Assembly (NCBI GenBank): GCA_031431875.1
Contig: JANPEF010000021.1
Location: forward strand, 1-18,318
Direction of reading: 5' to 3'
Length of the DNA stretch: 18,318 bases
Origin: Candidatus Eiseniibacteriota bacterium
Lineage (GTDB): Bacteria; Eisenbacteria; RBG-16-71-46; DASYSL01
The notes under the pieces are model-generated. The model searched no databases, was not told the origin of the DNA, and worked only from the letters and a program-made list of their open reading frames with translations. A program made the position numbers and the translations under genes. Shown piece by piece: positions 998 to 18,057 of the stretch. How positions within the stretch are numbered: position 1 is the first letter of the stretch; every line of letters starts with the position of its first letter.

Positions 998-1480
998 CTA
1001 GTCGCACACCGGCGTCGCCTCGAGTGCGGCGATCACGGGGGCGGGCAGGCTGTGGCGGCGCATGCCCGTGAGCAGCGTCCAGCGGTAGCGGCGTGACGGC
1101 AGCCCCGTCGGGCGCGGGCGCATGAGGTAGGTCTCGACTTCGAGGGGTTCGTTGAGTTCGAGGACGACGGTGCGCCGCACGCGGTCGTACAGGTTCGCGG
1201 CGTGCTGGGGGCCGAGATAGGTCTGCACACGATCGAGTGACACGAAGTCCTCCGGCGTGAGCTCGTAGACGACGCCGTGCACCATCGAGCCCGGGGCGTG
1301 CTCGGCCGTCGCGACCGCGCCGCCCCACTCCCTGTCGCGCCCGCGGAAGACCAGCACGTGGTCGTGCAGGATCGCGCGACAGAGCAAGCGATACGCCGGG
1401 CAGCGCGCACGCATGACGTCCGGGTCGAGGTTCGAGCCGTAGGCGAAGTAGACCGGCAGCGGTGCGGCAGGCGAGGTCAT
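998..1480 (-). CDS. gamma-glutamylcyclotransferase family protein, copy 2, 160 aa (catalytic Glu replaced by Gln)
   Basis: YFAYGSNL, GAVAT, VHGVVY, NLYDR and GLPSRRYR are collinear with copy 1. It has LDRVQT where copy 1 has LDAYEG. Confidence 0.88.
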   Translation of the reverse strand: MTSPAAPLPVYFAYGSNLDPDVMRARCPAYRLLCRAILHDHVLVFRGRDREWGGAVATAEHAPGSMVHGVVYELTPEDFVSLDRVQTYLGPQHAANLYDRVRRTVVLELNEPLEVETYLMRPRPTGLPSRRYRWTLLTGMRRHSLPAPVIAALEATPVCD

Positions 1481-1651
1481 CGACGGTCTCCCATGCGCCC
1501 GACTCTAGCAGCCCTGACACGGACTTGCGCGGCCCGGCCAAAGCTGCGAAGCTTTCTCCGCCCCGGCAGCCCAGTGCACGATACGCGCGCCACCGGTCCG
1601 CCCGAACCGCGCGACTCGAACGCACACCCGCGCGGAACCCCGAGGGCCTGC

Positions 1652-2182
1652 ATGGACCAGCCGATCTACATCCGCCCCGCCAGCCAGTCCGATGCCACCG
1701 AGTTGCTCGATATCTATCGTCCGTTCGTCGAATCGACCGCAGTCTCGTTCGAATTCGAGCCGCCGACCGTCACGGAGTTCGCCGAGCGCATTGCGAAATC
1801 CATCGCCGACTGGCAGTGGCTGGTCGCCGAGCAGGACGAGCGTTGCATCGGCTATGCCTACGGCTCGTCGCACCGCGAGCGCGACGCCTACCGCTGGTCG
1901 GTCGAGGTCTCGGCGTACGTCCACCCCGGGCACCGGCGCCGTGGCGTGGGGCGCCTGCTCTACACGCAACTGGTCGACGACCTGGCGCGGCGCGGCTACC
2001 GCAACGCGTACGCGGGAATCGCCCTGCCCAACGAGGCGAGCATCGCGCTTCACCGGCGGGCCGGCTTCGAGTACATCGGCGTGTTCAAGGCGGTGGGCCG
2101 GAAGTTCGACCGCTGGCACGACGTGGCGTGGTACCAGCGCGCGCTGCCCAACGTCTCGGCCGACGAAACCGACGAACCCTGA
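1652..2182 (+). CDS. GNAT N-acetyltransferase, phosphinothricin/methionine-sulfoximine acetyltransferase (Pat/MnaT/ArsN1-like) family, 176 aa
   Basis: IRPAS start, SFEFEPPT, GYAY, RDAYRWSVEVSAYVHP, acetyl-CoA loop RRRGVGRLL, PNEASIALH and VGRKFDRWHDVAWYQ. Start taken at ATG 1652. Confidence 0.9.
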   Translation: MDQPIYIRPASQSDATELLDIYRPFVESTAVSFEFEPPTVTEFAERIAKSIADWQWLVAEQDERCIGYAYGSSHRERDAYRWSVEVSAYVHPGHRRRGVGRLLYTQLVDDLARRGYRNAYAGIALPNEASIALHRRAGFEYIGVFKAVGRKFDRWHDVAWYQRALPNVSADETDEP

Positions 2183-2202
2183 TCTCAGGACGGAGCCCGA
2201 GC

Positions 2203-3075
2203 ATGCAAGCCGACGATCTCTCTTCTGAACTTCTCGCGCTGTGGAACTTCGGCGACCCGGTCGAGTCCGAGCGACGCTTTCGCGCGCTTCTCCTGCGCGT
2301 GGAGGCCGAACCCGAAGCGGCTGCGATCGTGACCACGCAGATCGCCCGGGCGCAGGGCCTGCAGCGGCGCTTCGACGAAGCGCACGCCACCCTCGACGCC
2401 GTCACGGTCCAGCCGACCGCGCGCGGCGCGCGAGTTGCCGTGCGCCTGGCGCTCGAGCTTGGCCGCGTCTTGCGCTCGGCGGGTGATGTCACGGCCGCGC
2501 AGCCGTACTTTGCTTCTGCATTCGCGCGTGCCGGCGAGGCGGGGGAGGACGCGCTCGCAGTCGATGCCGCGCATATGCTCGCGATCGTCGAGTCCGATCC
2601 AGCGCTGCAGGCGACGTGGAACCAGCGCGCCCTGGCGCTGGCCGAGAGTTCCTCCGACCCGCTGGCCCGGCGCTGGCGCGCGTCGCTGCTCAACAACATG
2701 GGGTGGACTCGCCACGGCGAGGGTCGGTTCGACGAGGCGCTCGGACTGTTCGAGTGCGCGCTGGCGGCCCGCGAGGAGCTGGGCGACGCCGGCGCAATCC
2801 GCGTGGCGCGCTGGTGCGTGGCGCGCGTGCTCCGTTCGCTCGGTCGTGTCGACGAGGCACTTGCTGCGCAGCAAGTGCTCGACGACGCGATCAGCGAGGC
2901 CGGTGCGCCGGCCGACGGATTCGTGTGCGAGGAGATCGCCGAGTGCCTGCTCGCGCTCGGTCGCGCGGAGGAAGCACGGCCCTGGTTCGCGAAGGCACAT
3001 GCCGAGTTGGTGAAGGATCCGGGGTTCGTCGAGGCGGAGCCCGCGCGGCTCGCGCGGATGAAGGCGGTGGGCTAG
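2203..3075 (+). CDS. tetratricopeptide repeat protein, 290 aa
   Basis: Repeated helical TPR-like units (LLNNMGW...GRFDEALGLFECAL; LRSLGRVDEALA; LLALGRAEEARPWFAKA). AGGA/GGAG upstream of ATG 2203. Confidence 0.8.
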   Translation: MQADDLSSELLALWNFGDPVESERRFRALLLRVEAEPEAAAIVTTQIARAQGLQRRFDEAHATLDAVTVQPTARGARVAVRLALELGRVLRSAGDVTAAQPYFASAFARAGEAGEDALAVDAAHMLAIVESDPALQATWNQRALALAESSSDPLARRWRASLLNNMGWTRHGEGRFDEALGLFECALAAREELGDAGAIRVARWCVARVLRSLGRVDEALAAQQVLDDAISEAGAPADGFVCEEIAECLLALGRAEEARPWFAKAHAELVKDPGFVEAEPARLARMKAVG

Positions 3076-12800: not shown

Positions 12801-14066
12801 GTGAACGCAGACCGCAAGGGAAAGATCGTGATCACCGGCATCGGCGTCGTGAGCCCCCTGGGCAACGACGTCGAGTCGATGTGGTCCGCCCTGGTCGCGG
12901 GCAGGAGCGGCGTGGGACCCATCACGCGCTTCGACGCCTCGACCGGCTACGCCACGCGCATCGCCGCGGAGGTGAAGGGCTTCGATCCCACCGTCTGGAT
13001 GGAGCGCAAGGACGCCAAGCGGAATGACCGCTTCGTCCAGCTCGGCGTGGCCGCCGCCGCACAGGCGGTGGAGTCCGCGCGCCTCGACATGAACACGGTC
13101 GACGCGAACCGCGTCGGCGTGATCATCGGTTCGGGCATCGGTGGGATCGGTACCTTCGAAGAGCAGCACACGAATCTCATCCAGAAGGGACCCGAACGGG
13201 TCTCGCCCTTCTTCATCCCGATGATGATCAGCAACATGGCCTCCGGCCAGATCTCGATCCACACCGGGGCGAAGGGACCGAACTTCACGACCGTGTCCGC
13301 CTGCACCTCATCGGCGAATGCGATCGGGGAGGCGCTGCGCTGTCTGCAGCACGACGACGCGGACGTGGTCATCACCGGAGGCACCGAAGCGACGGTCACG
13401 CCGATGGCGATCGCCGGCTTCAGCTCGATGAAGGCCATGTCCACAAGGAACGACGAACCAACCCGGGCCTCCAGGCCCTTCGACGCCGAACGTGACGGCT
13501 TCGTCATGGGCGAAGGCGCCGTGATGCTCGTGATCGAGAAGGAGGAGCACGCCATCAAGCGCGGCGCTCCGATCCTCTGCGAACTCGCGGGCTACGGAGC
13601 GTCCGGCGACGCGTATCACATCACCACCCCGATGCCTGACGGCGATGGCGCCGTGCGCGCCATGCGCCAGGCGTTGAATGACGCGGGAATGAAGCCCGAG
13701 GACGTGACGTACATCAACGCCCACGGCACTTCGACTCCCTACAACGACCGCACCGAGACGGTGGCGGTCAAGCGTCTGTTCGGGGAACACGCACGGAAGC
13801 TCATGCTGGCTTCGACGAAGTCCATGACCGGCCATCTCCTCGGCGCCGCGGGCGCCCTTGAGGCCGCGATCTGTGCATTGGTGATCACGCGTGGTGTCGT
13901 TCCGCCCACCATCAACTACGAGAACCCGGATCCCGAATGCGACCTAGACTGCGTACCGAATCAAGCCCGAACCGTCCCAGTGACGGCGGCACTCTCGAAC
14001 TCGATGGGGTTCGGCGGACACAACGGCAGCCTGGCGTTCCGGGCGATGCCGAAGCCGGCCGCCTGA
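12801..14066 (+). CDS. fabF: 3-oxoacyl-ACP synthase II
   Basis: [12 protein letters not shown], catalytic Cys (VSACTSS), [38 protein letters not shown] and GFGGHN. Confidence 0.97.
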
Positions 14067-16423
14067 ACGTCGAACGCACACGCCGCAGCCGCCGCGACGA
14101 TCGGGGCGACCGCCCCGACCGCGCGCCGCGTGGCGCCAGCTCCGATCGCGGAGAGCGCGGCGAACGAAGCGAGCGCACCTCGCGCCGCGAGCCGCGCGCC
14201 GAAGGCAGGAGCGAGTTCCGCACCGACCGAGGCGATCGTGCTGACCGCGGCGAGCGCAGCGAGCGTGCACCGCGCAGCGAACGCTCCGAACGCTCCGATC
14301 GCGGTGCACGCAGCGATCGCAGCGAGCGTGGCGAGCGTCGCGACCGCGGGGACCGCGGCGGGCGTTCCGATCGTGGCGGACGCGGTTATCGCGGCGGCAG
14401 CCGCGGCGACCGCCCGGCCACTGCCAGCAGCGGCTCGCGTCGCCCCGAGGCGGCGGCTCGCCAGGGCGGCGGATTCTTCAGCGGGCTGATCGCCTCGATC
14501 AAGAGCTTCTTCACCTCGAAGCCGGTCGGCACACGCACCGGAATCGCCGACGAGGCCAAGGCGATCGAGGAGTTCCAGCGACACCTGGGCATCACGTTCA
14601 ACGACACGGAGCTCCTGAAAACGTCGCTCACCCACCGGTCGTTCCTGCACATCGCCCGCGGCACGTCGAAGCAGTCGAACGAGCGGCTCGAGTTCCTGGG
14701 CGACTCGGTCCTCGGCGTCATCGTGTCCGAGCAGCTGTTCAAGAAGTTCCCCGACGAGCACGAGGGCCAGCTCACCAAGACCAAGTCGCTGCTGGTGAGC
14801 AAGGCGATCCTGTCGCGGCGGGCGCTGGCCATGGGCCTGGGCCGCTTCATGCTGATGTCGAACTCCGAGGTGGACTCCGGCGGACGGCAGCGCTTGTCGA
14901 TCCTCGCCGACGCGTTCGAGTCGGTTCTCGGCGCCATCTACCTCGACCAGGGACTCGATGCGGCGCGGACGTTCGTCGACACGTGGCTCCTGTCCGAGGC
15001 CAAGGGCATCGTCCAGGACAAGCGGCACACCAACTACAAGAGCCTGCTGCAGGAGTACGTGCAGAGCGCGTTCCACACCCACCCCGTGTACCGGATCCGC
15101 CACGAGCACGGTCCCGACCATTCGAAGCTGTTCACGGTCGAGGTCATGGTCAGCGGCAAGAACCTGGGCTCGGGCAAGGGCAAGAACAAGAAAGAGGCCG
15201 AGCAGTCGGCGGCGCGGGACGCACTCGACCGCGTGGCCGCCGAGTCCGGCGAGAAGCGTGCCGAGCGCAGCGAGCGGCCGGAGCGGGCCGAGCGCGCGGA
15301 GCGTGGGGATCGTCCGGAGCGTGCGGAACGTCCGGAGCGTAGCGACCGGCCGGAACGCAGCGAGCGAGGAGATCGTCCCCTGCGGGCCGATCGTGCAGAT
15401 CGTCCGGAGCGCGCCGACCGTCCGGAGCGCGCGGATCGCGAGGAGCGTCCGGACCGCGAAGAGCGTCCGGATCGTGGAGAGCGTGGCGAGCGCGGGGTCC
15501 GACGTGGTCGTGGCGATCGTCCGGAGCGCACACCGCGCGGGCTCGAGGCCGAGCCGATCGTCGCCGAGGATCTTGATTACCTCGTCGAGCGTCCGGCGCG
15601 CGTACCCCGCGAGGACCGGGCGCCCCGCGAGGAGCGAGCGCCGCGGATGGAACGTGCGATGCGCGAGGACCGCCCGCTGCGCGAGCCGCGTGAAGAGCGT
15701 GCGCCGCGCGAGATGGACGAGCCGCTGGGCGAGCGGGCGGAACGACCGGAGCGCGAGGCGCGTCCCGAGCGCGATCGCCCGGAGCGTCCGGATCGGGGCC
15801 GCGATCGCGGACCGCGTCCGGATCGCGAGCCGCGTGCGGAACGCGAGGCCCGTCCGGAGCGCGAAGCGCGTCCCGACCGCGAGCCGCGCGAAGAGCGTGC
15901 GCCACGCGAGGAGCGTCCGCCACGCGAACCACGTGAAGAGCGTGCGCCGCGTCCGGAACGCGAACCGCGTCCGGCCGTCGAGCGCCCGGCATTCGGTTCG
16001 GCGCCGCGTCGCAGTGACGAAGTTTTGGCAGCGCCGCGTCCGGCGGCGGCCTCGATCGACCTCTCGGGCGCGAGCCTGCAGTGGGAGACCGAGCCCTCGC
16101 GGCCGGCCGCGCGCGAAAGCAAGAGCTTCGGCCGGAGTGCGCCGGTCAAGTCGCGCACCGGTGGCGTCGCTCCGCCGCAGTCGGATCCGTCGCGCGTGCG
16201 CAGCGTCAGCGAGTCGCCGGCGTCCGCGCCGGTCGCCCCGTCGGCCTCGACCGTGACCCAGTCGTCCACGACGACGTACAAGGTCGATGCGCAGGTGCGC
16301 GAGGTGAAGGGCCCGTTGCCGGGCGTCGACGCGTCGCGCTACCGCGCCGCCGAAGCGCCGGCATCGGCCTTCTCCAGCGACACGCCGACGGCGTGGGACG
16401 AAGAGCCGAAGGAACACGAATGA
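14063..16423 (+). CDS. rnc: ribonuclease III with very long N- and C-terminal low-complexity extensions (786 aa from the proposed CTG start; 828 aa from ATG 13937)
   Basis: LTHRS, signature NERLEFLGDSVL (E at 14681), ADAFESVLGAIYLDQG, and dsRBD NYKSLLQE...GPDHSKLFTVEV...GKGKNKKEAEQSAARDAL. Follows fabF as is common for rnc. The start position is uncertain. Confidence 0.93.
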   Translation: MNVERTRRSRRDDRGDRPDRAPRGASSDRGERGERSERTSRREPRAEGRSEFRTDRGDRADRGERSERAPRSERSERSDRGARSDRSERGERRDRGDRGGRSDRGGRGYRGGSRGDRPATASSGSRRPEAAARQGGGFFSGLIASIKSFFTSKPVGTRTGIADEAKAIEEFQRHLGITFNDTELLKTSLTHRSFLHIARGTSKQSNERLEFLGDSVLGVIVSEQLFKKFPDEHEGQLTKTKSLLVSKAILSRRALAMGLGRFMLMSNSEVDSGGRQRLSILADAFESVLGAIYLDQGLDAARTFVDTWLLSEAKGIVQDKRHTNYKSLLQEYVQSAFHTHPVYRIRHEHGPDHSKLFTVEVMVSGKNLGSGKGKNKKEAEQSAARDALDRVAAESGEKRAERSERPERAERAERGDRPERAERPERSDRPERSERGDRPLRADRADRPERADRPERADREERPDREERPDRGERGERGVRRGRGDRPERTPRGLEAEPIVAEDLDYLVERPARVPREDRAPREERAPRMERAMREDRPLREPREERAPREMDEPLGERAERPEREARPERDRPERPDRGRDRGPRPDREPRAEREARPEREARPDREPREERAPREERPPREPREERAPRPEREPRPAVERPAFGSAPRRSDEVLAAPRPAAASIDLSGASLQWETEPSRPAARESKSFGRSAPVKSRTGGVAPPQSDPSRVRSVSESPASAPVAPSASTVTQSSTTTYKVDAQVREVKGPLPGVDASRYRAAEAPASAFSSDTPTAWDEEPKEHE
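14075..14461 (+). repeat. coding low-complexity (D/E)R(G/S/A/P) tripeptide repeats and RGG-like tract, N-terminal to the RNase III domain
   Basis: Translation DRGDRPDRAPR...ERSERSDRGARSDRSERGERRDRGDRGGRSDRGGRGYRGG. Degenerate 9-nt periodicity. Confidence 0.85.
15242..15985 (+). repeat. coding low-complexity (E/D)R(P/A) and PREERAPRE repeats, C-terminal to the dsRBD
   Basis: ERAERSERPERAERAERGDRPERAERPER...DREPRAEREARPEREARPDREPREERAPREERPPREPREERAPRPEREPR. Confidence 0.88.
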
Positions 16424-18057
16424 TCCGCGCCCGGCAGTCGCGTTCGCTGCTTCTCGCCGCCCTCGTCTTCGTCGCGCTGCCGGTCCTGTCCGGTTGCGCG
16501 AAGAAGCAGGCGGCCCCGGGCGGAGGCGGCGGTTCGGGTACGCCCGTCGCGGGCGGTGAGCTGGTGTTCGGGCGAGGCCACGATTCCGTGCGCCTCGACC
16601 CCGGGCACGAGACCGACGGCGAGTCGTTCAAGGTGATCGATAACCTCTACGAGAACCTGGTCACCTACGCCGACACTACGACCGAGATCGTCCCCGAGCT
16701 CGCCACTCGCTGGGAGATCTCGGAGGACGGGCTGCACTACACGTTCCACCTGCGACCGGGCGTGAAGTTCCACGACGGCACGTCGCTCGACGCCGCTGCG
16801 GTGCTGTTCTCGCTCGATCGCCAGCGCGCCATGACGCCGCCGCACCCGTTCCATTCAGTTGGCGGGCCGTACACCTACTGGCAGAGCATGGGCATGGACG
16901 ACATCCTCGCCGACCTCAAGGCGCCGGACGAGTCGACGGTCGTGTTCACGCTGGCGCGGCGCAACGCGCCGTTCCTCGCCAACCTGGCCATGGGCTTCGC
17001 GGCCATCGTGAGCCCCACGGCGGCTCAGAAGCACGGCGAGGACTTCTTCAAGTTCCCCACGGGCACCGGGCCGTTCCGCTTCGTCGAGTGGGTGAAGGAC
17101 GATCGCATCGTGCTCGAGCGCAACCCCGACTACTGGGGTGCCAAGCCTTATCTCGACAAGGTCGTGTTCCGCTCGATCCCCGAGAATACCGTGCGCCTGC
17201 TCGCGCTCGAGAGCGGCGAGATCGCCGGCATGGACGGCATCAACGCCGAGCTGGCCAAGCGCCTCGAGACCAACGCCGGCTTCACGCTCCTGAAGCAGCC
17301 GGGCATGAATGTCGGCTACCTGGCGATGAACATGGACAAGCCGCCGTTCGACAAGCTCGAGGTGCGCCAGGCGCTCAATTACGCGGTGCAGCGCGAGGCG
17401 ATCGTCAAGGGGCTGTACGGCGGCTACGGCACGCCGGCGGTCAACCCGATGCCGCCGACGCTGTGGGGCTACAACCATTCGATCGTCGGCTACGCCTACG
17501 ACGTGGCGAAGGCGAAGGAGTTGCTCGCGGCCGCCGGATTCCCGAACGGCTTCAAGACCGAGCTGTGGGCCATGACCGGGCCGCGCCCGTACATGCCCGA
17601 TCCGCTCAAGGTCGCCGAGGCGATCCAGTCCGACCTCACGGCGGTGGGCGTCGACGCCACGCTCAAGACGCTCGAGTGGGGGACCTACCTCGACCAGGTG
17701 CAGGGTGGCAAGGCGCCGATGTGCCTGCTGGGCTGGACCGGCGACAACGGCGATCCCGACAACTTCCTCTACGTGCTGCTGGGCAAGTCCTCGACGCGCC
17801 TCCCGGCGCAGAACGTCGCGTTCTACCGCAGCGACGAGGTCGACGCGCTCCTGCGCAAGGCGCAGGAAGAGCCGGACGTCGTGAAGCGCACCGCGCTCTA
17901 TGAAGAGGCGCAGGCGCTCATCCACCGCGACGCCCCGTGGGTGCCCATCGCGCACATGACGCAGCTCGTCGGCTTCCGCCGCAACGTGCACGGCTACCCC
18001 ATGCACCCGACCGGCAAGGTCCGCTTCCGCTCCGTCTGGATCGAGCCGGGCGCCTAG
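16420..18057 (+). CDS. dppA: peptide/nickel ABC transporter substrate-binding lipoprotein (family 5, DppA-like), 545 aa
   Basis: Signal peptide with lipobox LSGC, PELATRWEISEDGLHYTFHLRPGVKFHDG, PTGTGPFRF, RPYMPDP and GWTGDNGDPDNF. ATGA overlap with the rnc stop. Confidence 0.92.
   Translation: MIRARQSRSLLLAALVFVALPVLSGCAKKQAAPGGGGGSGTPVAGGELVFGRGHDSVRLDPGHETDGESFKVIDNLYENLVTYADTTTEIVPELATRWEISEDGLHYTFHLRPGVKFHDGTSLDAAAVLFSLDRQRAMTPPHPFHSVGGPYTYWQSMGMDDILADLKAPDESTVVFTLARRNAPFLANLAMGFAAIVSPTAAQKHGEDFFKFPTGTGPFRFVEWVKDDRIVLERNPDYWGAKPYLDKVVFRSIPENTVRLLALESGEIAGMDGINAELAKRLETNAGFTLLKQPGMNVGYLAMNMDKPPFDKLEVRQALNYAVQREAIVKGLYGGYGTPAVNPMPPTLWGYNHSIVGYAYDVAKAKELLAAAGFPNGFKTELWAMTGPRPYMPDPLKVAEAIQSDLTAVGVDATLKTLEWGTYLDQVQGGKAPMCLLGWTGDNGDPDNFLYVLLGKSSTRLPAQNVAFYRSDEVDALLRKAQEEPDVVKRTALYEEAQALIHRDAPWVPIAHMTQLVGFRRNVHGYPMHPTGKVRFRSVWIEPGA

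Follow-up and report, generated by a model that had tools for sequence, protein, structure and literature searches.

We analysed a stretch of 18,318 nt (hereafter, the window) of contig JANPEF010000021.1, assembly GCA_031431875.1, from Candidatus Eiseniibacteriota, an uncultured bacterium of soil and sediment; among named public genomes, those closest to it carry the label Candidatus Eisenbacteria. A yceD-plsX-fab cluster in the window includes the only rnc match in the genome, immediately after fabF (beta-ketoacyl-ACP synthase II; 12801..14066; Pfam ketoacyl-synt, 211 bits, and Ketoacyl-synt_C, 139 bits; stop TGA 14064-14066); all genes and features of the locus given below lie on the forward (+) strand. 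The rnc frame is free of stops from 13862 to the TGA at 16421-16423, and its first canonical start, ATG 13937, defines a single uninterrupted open reading frame (ORF; 13937..16423) of 828 aa, in which a ribonuclease III (RNase III) core with a domain for binding double-stranded RNA (dsRBD) is flanked by two long, Arg-rich arms. We refer to its product as the giant RNase III.

The core (aa 213-432, 14573-15232) scored 247.9 bits with the NCBIfam RNase III equivalog TIGR02191, whose cut-off is 166.25. It comprises a catalytic domain (aa 223-353, 14603..14995; Ribonucleas_3_3 PF14622, 122 bits; PF00636, 81 bits), with the signature NERLEFLGDS (aa 248-257, 14678-14707) and the second acidic cluster ADAFES (aa 324-329, 14906-14923), followed by the dsRBD (aa 367-431, 15035..15229; PF00035 dsrm, 66.8 bits). 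Residues N248, E249, R250, E252, L254-S257, D325 and E328 were invariant in 22 of 22 aligned sequences, with variation at the flanking positions, and the closest solved structure to the core was 1o0w (1e-47). The equivalog score, the catalytic signature plus acidic cluster and the single C-terminal dsRBD are those of class-1 RNase III, whose core dimerises and cuts double-stranded RNA. Conversely, the 828-aa chain, in which 212 aa precede the core and 396 aa follow it, falls well outside the compact size of about 220-260 aa, being three to four times as long; only one RNase III stretch was matched, not the two domains per chain of the Drosha type, and the RNase E/G family matched only another protein of the genome (G000:C106, see below). 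By these sequence criteria, the giant protein is the cell's single class-1 RNase III, catalytically intact as judged from its residues. Separately, two complete RNase III plus dsRBD modules per chain ('pseudo-dimers') were seen in the prokaryote-like proteins P0135, P0151, P0159, P0177, P0209 and P0217, and P0166 is a 2391-aa protein with an internal RNase III match.

The N-arm (aa 44-176, 14066..14464) is a low-complexity sequence of Arg, Asp, Glu, Ser and Gly, with 32% Arg, a charged fraction of 0.53 and a net charge of +0.11 per residue, and it contains an RGG-like tract (aa 138-158, 14348-14410); relatives have a shorter RRRGGRGRRRG patch. It is followed by a conserved amphipathic helix motif (aa 177-196, 14465..14524; core FFSGLIASIKSFFT, aa 180-193) that resembles a membrane-targeting sequence (MTS). 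The first part of the C-tail (aa 433-690, 15233..16006) is an Arg/Glu/Asp/Pro polyampholyte built from units such as ERP, DRP, ERA and PREE, with 29% Arg, 0% Lys, 16% Pro, a charged fraction of 0.60 and a net charge of 0.00, and the second part (aa 691-828, 16007..16420) is rich in Ser, Ala and Pro and carries conserved short motifs. Neither the N-arm nor the C-tail had any match in Pfam, NCBIfam or the PDB. In a charge-hydropathy plot, aa 44-176 and 433-690 fell on the disordered side of the boundary and aa 691-828 were borderline; from composition only, we infer that the arms are disordered. Most of what the initial annotation had read at this locus was recovered: an uninterrupted ORF with an RNase III and dsRBD core at about 14549-15238 (within 24 nt of the TIGR02191 match), a C-terminal low-complexity sequence of about 390 aa (396 aa, aa 433-828), Arg alternating with Glu/Asp ahead of a terminal Ser/Ala/Pro region, and an RGG-like tract. 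Its start at 14063 and its N-terminal sequence of about 130 aa had to be revised, because position 14063 is a CTG, not a canonical start, and the N-terminal sequence measures 170 aa from 14063 and 212 aa from ATG 13937.

An assembly artefact, which the initial annotation had named as a possible refutation, was examined with contigs from other samples. Contigs of three further samples, all of one study (X2, X3 and X4), tile positions 13900-16450 with 0-1 differences per piece and no indels; the N-arm repeats (13900-14794) are crossed by single contigs, and the entire C-tail (15194-16450) by one X2 contig. A strain from a second study (X5) showed substitutions only with respect to the window, thus reproducing the tails without indels. 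At position 14104 the window has G and X2-X5 have C, a synonymous change (CGG to CGC). For coding analysis we took the 40 listed strain differences out of 64 and dropped four (14798-14803, on a contig of different depth), which left 36, with 22 in the tails. Among these listed tail differences, 16 of 22 were synonymous in the rnc frame, as compared with 3 of 22 in each of the other + frames, and 15 of 22 fell at third codon positions (binomial p = 9e-4); in the N-extension (14104-14554), six of the seven listed differences were synonymous. An 818-aa antisense ORF (13961-16417) was discarded as the coding frame, only 3 of the 22 listed differences being synonymous in it. Against the rnc frame stands the antisense frame that shares its third positions, in which 15 of the 22 listed differences were synonymous, but stops split it into ORFs of 103, 165 and 234 aa.

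The tails contain degenerate tandem repeats whose periods are all multiples of 3 (9, 18, 27, 30, 36 and 45), with copies 61-85% alike. We also scanned the whole 3.75-Mb genome in six frames for mixed charge, counting 60-aa windows in which R/K and D/E each make up at least 25%; among the 248 open frames scored, the rnc frame had 278 such windows, as compared with 51 for the next best. Together, these substitution patterns and the comparisons with relatives described below show the arms to be real, translated in the rnc frame, under purifying selection and conserved across the order.

To place the giant form among relatives, we examined RNase III lengths at several taxonomic depths. RNase III was found in 38 of 41 related genomes. 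Thirty loci were fetched from the same order of Candidatus Eisenbacteria, covering two families, and in every one of the 26 without truncation at a contig end a C-tail is present, 202-433 aa in length (these counts, and those given below for 30 loci, include locus L001 from an unpublished genome, G007, on which no conclusion rests alone). In a phylum set of 153 genomes at least 85% complete, RNase III occurred in 149, with lengths taken as stop-to-stop frames. Using our family numbers, these frames were 693-988 aa in f1, about 450-1000 aa in f3, 253, 253 and 671 aa in f2, 329-597 aa in f18 and 255-544 aa in the other families; C-tails measured 365-433 aa in f1 (n=5) and 202-348 aa in f3. The initial annotation had made comparable lengths and tails in relatives a test of its reading, and in this respect it held.

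A word-indexed search for long relatives of the core returned 1764 proteins of at least 386 aa at E <= 1e-10; the best 120 of these were 391-658 aa long and 70-85% identical and, where named, were called only 'ribonuclease III'. Among 1.84 billion representative sequences, matches at >=54% identity were mostly 354-693 aa and those at <=52% mostly 230-290 aa. In 80 named loci, C-extensions were 3-47 aa in the distant ones (Spirochaetota, Ignavibacteria, Zixibacteria and other Eisenbacteria) and 103-140 aa in two loci at 57-59% identity. Because of these length surveys across families and databases, the giant RNase III is, as far as sequences extend, a trait of part of one candidate phylum. Arg/Asp/Glu/Gly-rich C-tails of 100-200 aa, some with a RRRRRRGGRGRRG patch, were also observed in P0202, P0140, P0141, P0143 and P0146 (46-59% identity).

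The amphipathic motif ahead of the core, with the pattern F[WF]xWL[KR]xLFG, was present 14-36 aa before the catalytic domain in 29 of the 30 loci; in the window, 19 aa separate it from the RNase III domain and an Arg-rich patch precedes it. Since a scan by hydrophobic moment on the Eisenberg scale selected periodic Arg tracts rather than the helix, the scan was anchored on hydrophobicity instead. The 14-mer of the window has, on the Fauchere-Pliska scale, a mean hydrophobicity of 0.85, a hydrophobic moment of 0.59, reached by only 0.3% of shuffles, and a net charge of +1; the MTS of Escherichia coli RNase E (from NC_000913) gave 0.77 and 0.63 for hydrophobicity and moment, respectively. In three loci the motif is identical to the RNase E MTS core at 7 of 12 positions, a level reached by only 7 of 7.5 million genome six-frame 12-mers. 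The identity is only 4/12 in the window, where the likeness to the MTS is, by these values, physico-chemical and not sequence-based.

Short basic amphipathic motifs at the N-terminus, such as MWLRLPTFLRRLFTRKG or VQFLRKLFGL, were also seen in RNase IIIs of ordinary size from Ignavibacteria, Zixibacteria, other Eisenbacteria and a Chitinophagales metagenome-assembled genome, and the Spirochaete homologues were without the motif. Carriers of the N-terminal motif comprise proteins P0138, P0141, P0143, P0153, P0157, P0158, P0161, P0169 and P0173 and loci L037-L047, L050, L056, L061, L062 and L110; in the literature searched, we found no description of an N-terminal amphipathic motif of ordinary RNase IIIs.

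The second part of the tail contains the motifs IDLSGASLQWETEP (16055-16096), SFGRSAPVKSR (16124-16156) and VSESPASAP (16205-16231), and ends in a segment of 47 aa running from KVDAQVREVKGPLPGVDASRYRAAEAPAS to WDEEPKEHE (16280-16420). Although the tails otherwise diverge, 15 positions of the last 100 aa are invariant in seven of seven f1-type sequences (G732, R733, V757, P761, P765, E789, G792, P795, G796, R801, Y802, R803, A805, E806 and P808), including the patterns [FY]GR, V..xP and E..G..PG....RYR.AE. In a six-frame search of the genome, the RYR[AV]AE[AS], EVKGPLPG-like and WDEEPKE-like patterns were unique to the giant RNase III. The f3 tails conserve a different set, consisting of a RRRRRGRRGGRGRR Arg patch, an EEVGRPEGP..VDP island and an FGRRGRRR end; thus, conserved short motifs within a putatively disordered region, as expected of an RNase E-type scaffold, were found in both families. 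A search for look-alikes of aa 691-828 in the ESM Atlas gave a best feature score of 0.77, below the useful level.

The charges of the tail are finely mixed in the window, with kappa values of 0.035-0.057 that lie under those of shuffles, and of 0.035 for aa 433-690 (z = -3.5 with respect to shuffles). The four whole f1 tails tested were near-neutral strong polyampholytes, with a charged fraction of 0.44-0.49, Arg at 0.20-0.23 and Lys at <=0.02, and their mixing was more even than chance (kappa 0.057-0.09, z = -2.2 to -3.8). Conversely, of six f3 tails tested, five carry a net negative charge in a blocky pattern (kappa 0.21-0.46, z up to +13), and the sixth was near random. Tail chemistry thus differs between f1 and f3.

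The position of the rnc start was also compared across loci. ATG 13937 lies 130 nt inside fabF and out of frame with it, so that the putative N-terminus (aa 1-43, 13937..14065) would be translated from a stretch overlapping the fabF 3' end. ATG 13937 is the only canonical rnc start in the window, because no ATG, GTG or TTG occurs in the rnc frame between 13937 and the catalytic domain; a near-cognate start at CTG 14063, which overlaps the fabF stop (C-TGA), would yield 786 aa. In 30 of 30 related loci, fabF is directly upstream of rnc in constant relative phase, and an ATG or GTG falls on conserved Glu-Cys codons of fabF, 39-43 codons before its stop. No canonical start in the rnc frame follows the fabF stop in 13 of the 30, leaving the fabF-internal one as the sole canonical start there, and it is the only start usable in all 30 loci. 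Its conservation by itself is no proof, since the codon comes 'for free' from fabF. From this comparison, the start of rnc appears to lie within fabF, in another frame and about 130 nt upstream of that gene's stop codon; a conserved overlap of this kind is a rare gene arrangement in bacteria. CTG 14063 is orthologous to the ATG of an ATGA overlap in L001 and in database protein P0002, but a 4-nt stop-start overlap was rejected as the general start of rnc, the overlapping codon being GTA in 25, CTG in 4 and ATG in 1 of the 30 loci. The database protein P0134 (688 aa) runs from the fabF frame into the rnc frame, through either a frameshift or a gene-calling artefact.

Downstream, the ATG (16420-16422) of a gene for an SBP_bac_5 solute-binding lipoprotein (16420..18057; signal peptide with an LSGC lipobox, read from sequence) overlaps the rnc stop TGA (ATGA), which also speaks for the reality of the C-tail; the sucC/sucD and fabD/fabG pairs of the window show comparable overlaps of 4 nt. 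An Rfam scan of the whole window matched no family.

Three scaffold nucleases, RNase E, RNase Y and RNase J, are known to organise bacterial RNA decay, and the place and manner of RNA breakdown depend on their disordered regions and membrane anchors. The genome, which is 98.45% complete, was examined for these enzymes. Its sole RNase E/G homologue is a 515-aa RNase G-like protein (G000:C106) that ends with a small domain and is without a tail, and neither RNase Y nor RNase J was found in this 98.45%-complete genome; the initial annotation had proposed to check whether these RNases lack disordered regions. The RNase G-like protein (L031, ORF 1465-3012) has a small acidic and Gly/Arg-rich insert at about aa 80-105, near the S1 region.

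In the phylum set, the short RNase G type was present in 152 of 153 genomes, with frames of mostly 500-620 aa; open frames of 850-1460 aa for RNase E/G in about ten f3 genomes may be upstream read-through. RNase Y was present in 128 of 153 genomes: in none of five f1 genomes, nor in that of the window, and in 60 of 61 in f3, 3 of 3 in f2 and 30 of 30 in f18. It was likewise not found in several other families (f5, f8, f9, f11, f13 and half of f4). Family f1, without RNase Y, has the longest and most Arg-rich tails, whereas f3 has RNase Y and shorter tails, which is a single evolutionary contrast and not a statistical one. Compensation by the tails for a lost RNase E tail was rejected as an explanation, the short RNase G type being phylum-wide.

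As regards candidate partners, the PNPase is ordinary (698 aa, G000:C8), and a DEAD-box helicase (L121, G000:C40, ORF 832-2931) has a Gly/Arg/Ser C-tail of about 130 aa, RGG-like and with an Arg-rich end; from its sequence, this helicase is a plausible partner in RNA decay. Besides a full-length rho, the genome contains a second, partial Rho-like match (L129, G000:C26:45583-46410; model positions 138-413, 378 bits, below the cut-off).

We interpret these data as suggesting that the giant RNase III acquired non-catalytic arms laid out on the RNase E plan, by convergence and not by homology, and serving anchoring, RNA capture and docking. This is the reading that we favour, although we hold it tentatively and with slightly less than even confidence. 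The core would dimerise and cut double-stranded RNA as in the class-1 family, and the Arg-rich, RGG-containing N-arm of each subunit would bind RNA non-specifically. The positively charged amphipathic helix would tether the dimer to the inner membrane or to another anionic surface, the disordered tail of about 400 aa, with its Arg-based mixed charges, would make multivalent weak contacts with RNA and with itself, and the conserved short motifs near the end of the tail would be docking sites for partner proteins. RNase III would thereby form the centre of a localised and multivalent assembly for the processing or decay of RNA. Binding of RNA by the arms, attachment to the membrane, docking of partners and any condensation are inferences, and a role as a scaffold or hub is plausible.

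Several observations weigh against this reading. RNase Y is present in nearly all f3 genomes and yet these have long RNase III tails, and in families with an RNase III frame of normal or only modestly greater length (255-544 aa) the short RNase G is likewise the only type, so the tails are not a simple replacement of a missing scaffold. The different chemistry of the f1 and f3 tails argues against one conserved physical mechanism. As for the helix, which is judged by hydrophobic moment alone, the moment exceeds that of 95% of shuffles in just 14 of the 30 loci; furthermore, a similar motif occurs at the extreme N-terminus of ordinary-sized RNase IIIs from Ignavibacteria, Zixibacteria and other Eisenbacteria, which places its origin before that of the giant form, and it may serve otherwise, for instance by packing on the domain. 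The tail of the window is finely mixed, whereas that of E. coli RNase E is less charged and moderately blocky (charged fraction 0.30, kappa 0.21, z = +2.2), and polymer theory holds finely mixed polyampholytes to be less prone to self-coacervation than blocky ones. Lastly, mixed-charge domains as defined in the available part of Greig et al. (bioRxiv 10.1101/771592) require a 60-aa window whose charged fraction is >=0.7 and in which the positive/negative ratio is 1 +/- 0.3, and none of the 769 windows of the giant RNase III reached this narrowly missed level (maximum charged fraction 0.68); 83 of its windows pass at a charged fraction of >=0.65, and the relatives L028 and L030 have 36 and 54 windows, respectively, that pass at the full threshold. 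The coexistence with RNase Y in f3, the differences in tail chemistry and the older helix thus call for caution against a strict 'RNase E substitute'.

Among the alternatives, the one that survives best is that the arms tune the enzyme only, as non-specific RNA-binding 'antennae' or as autoinhibitory or solubility appendages that alter the affinity for substrates or their range, without partner scaffold, condensate or membrane tether; we consider it possible, if on the unlikely side. The finely mixed charges of f1 fit an expanded, soluble coil in theory, Arg-rich and RGG tracts are generic RNA binders, and tail sequence and charge pattern vary freely between families, with only length and composition persisting. 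In mycobacterial RNase E, moreover, the main effect of the disordered regions is an increase in RNA binding, according to the accessible part of PMC12767347. However, conserved motifs at the tail end, within a fast-evolving sequence, point to specific ligands, and RNA binding leaves the conserved amphipathic helix unexplained.

We are more doubtful of a further-reaching proposal, namely that in f1, taken to have neither RNase Y nor RNase J and only a tail-less RNase G, RNA decay would be organised around the giant RNase III as a membrane-tethered, RNase III-based analogue of the degradosome or of bacterial ribonucleoprotein bodies (BR-bodies), in which the helix locates the enzyme, the Arg-rich arms and mixed-charge tail gather RNA and the C-terminal motifs recruit exonucleases or helicases; as a whole, this analogy strikes us as rather unlikely. 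If true, scaffold endoribonucleases would have arisen independently a fourth time, in addition to RNase E, RNase Y and RNase J.

Slippage in a genome of 70% G+C might instead have produced the tails as low-complexity expansions that are tolerated, largely neutral and without specific function, but this appears improbable. Degenerate tandem repeats of 9-45 nt, a tail length that varies from 202 to 433 aa, two f2 genomes with 253-aa frames without tails and a composition that follows GC-rich codons (Arg, Ala, Pro, Gly and Glu) would all be expected from such a process, but nothing comparable exists in any other protein of the genome, and the tails are kept in 26 of 26 uncut relatives of two families. 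Moreover, the predominance of synonymous changes among the listed tail differences (16/22), the more even than random mixing of charge in the four f1 tails and the conservation of short motifs all argue against neutrality.

Still more improbable, in our view, is that the arms tie RNase III to ribosome biogenesis, keeping the enzyme on its main substrate, nascent pre-rRNA or pre-ribosomes, in the manner of charged, Arg/Glu-rich nucleolar and ribosomal-protein extensions. Pre-rRNA processing ranks first among the conserved tasks of RNase III, charged disordered regions reportedly set nucleolar localisation in eukaryotes, and the gene lies in the yceD-plsX-fab cluster, which also encodes the rRNA-accumulation factor YceD; nevertheless, a membrane-type helix would draw the enzyme away from the nucleoid, and the fab-rnc order is widespread, also with RNase III of ordinary size. 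Finally, an artefact, in which a mis-assembled repeat, a frameshift or a wrong gene call surrounds a normal 230-aa RNase III, could be suspected from the metagenome-assembled origin, the repeat-rich region, the missing canonical start after fabF and the fused fabF/rnc reading of P0134, which looks like a frameshift, but it is scarcely credible when contigs of three further samples and the second-study strain agree without indels, in-frame tails occur in all uncut related genomes and in hundreds of database proteins, the far C-terminal conserved motifs share a frame with the core and substitutions follow a coding-frame pattern.

If arms acquired by convergence on the RNase E plan are the correct reading, a lineage-wide RNase III with an anchor-like helix, Arg-rich segments and a long charged tail bearing docking-type motifs would show that this layout is general and has evolved repeatedly, and the giant RNase III would offer a natural bacterial Arg-based mixed-charge domain on a well-understood enzyme. 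The initial annotation had not known this architecture as described: the literature searched bears this out, with no bacterial RNase III with such arms found there (papers beyond the searchable collection and bioRxiv supplements lay outside its scope) and no title on RNA decay among the listed matches for Eisenbacteria, although hundreds of such proteins are already in public databases as 'ribonuclease III'. Since the proteins were thus public under a generic name only, what appears to be new here, as read from the sequences, is the pre-catalytic amphipathic helix, the short motifs of the C-tail and the out-of-frame rnc/fabF overlap.

RNase III has hitherto been treated as a small, free dimer. 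As in the class-1 enzymes of TIGR02191, such as those of Thermotoga maritima (1o0w) and Aquifex aeolicus (1yyk), the giant RNase III has one catalytic domain and one dsRBD, but on a chain of 828 (or 786) aa with arms, where the class usually has about 220-260 aa. Drosha, chains of which were among the PDB matches of the giant RNase III, is a eukaryotic RNase III of class 2 whose N-terminal domain is reportedly disordered and rich in Pro; the two share an RNase III family core extended by long Pro- and Arg-rich sequence, putatively disordered in the giant RNase III, whereas Drosha has two RNase III domains per chain and is nuclear, with DGCR8, and the giant RNase III has one domain and is a bacterial housekeeping enzyme.

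Within the literature searched, a layout of this kind seems so far to have been described only for the unrelated RNase E, whose non-catalytic region (aa 530-1061 in E. coli) contains the MTS, the segments AR1 and AR2 and partner sites within a disordered scaffold, according to the available portion of PMC4435900. Both proteins have an amphipathic helix, putative in the giant RNase III, by the catalytic domain, with matching values, as well as Arg-rich segments and a long tail with short motifs, and an unrelated amphipathic helix can replace the MTS of RNase E, in the excerpt available of PMC13657362. However, the two are not homologous and differ in catalytic fold, the giant RNase III being predicted to cut double-stranded RNA and RNase E cutting single-stranded RNA; helix and Arg-rich segment are N-terminal to the core in the former, not C-terminal, and its tail is twice as charged (0.60 as compared with 0.30) and finely mixed. 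The initial description of a protein built like an RNase E scaffold stands for the conserved architecture, to which the MTS-like helix and the tail motifs, absent from that description, add two more RNase E-like traits, but not for the charge pattern of the tail or for any simple compensation.

In mycobacterial RNase E, as far as the accessible text of PMC12767347 goes, the N- and C-terminal disordered regions both bind RNA and the C-arm helps to recruit PNPase; this enzyme belongs to another family and resembles the giant RNase III, whose arms are putatively disordered, in having its core between two such arms, in a high-G+C organism. E. coli RNase II, in turn, is anchored to the membrane by an amphipathic helix at its N-terminus (a finding of Lu and Taghbalout 2013, cited in the parts available of PMC3997798 and PMC4274665), and so is also a soluble ribonuclease with a short amphipathic helix N-terminal to its catalytic part, but it is an exoribonuclease with the helix at the extreme N-terminus and without long disordered arms. 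Arg-based mixed-charge domains of nuclear-speckle proteins condense in a length-dependent manner that requires Arg and not Lys, as reported in the portion available of Greig et al. (bioRxiv 10.1101/771592). Similarly, aa 433-690 have Arg in place of Lys, a near-zero net charge and alternating Arg and Asp/Glu, and are joined to an RNA-binding module, but they are diluted by Pro and Ala and belong to a bacterial setting. In composition and charge pattern, the f1 tail thus appears closer to the Arg-enriched mixed-charge domains of nuclear-speckle proteins than to the tail of RNase E.

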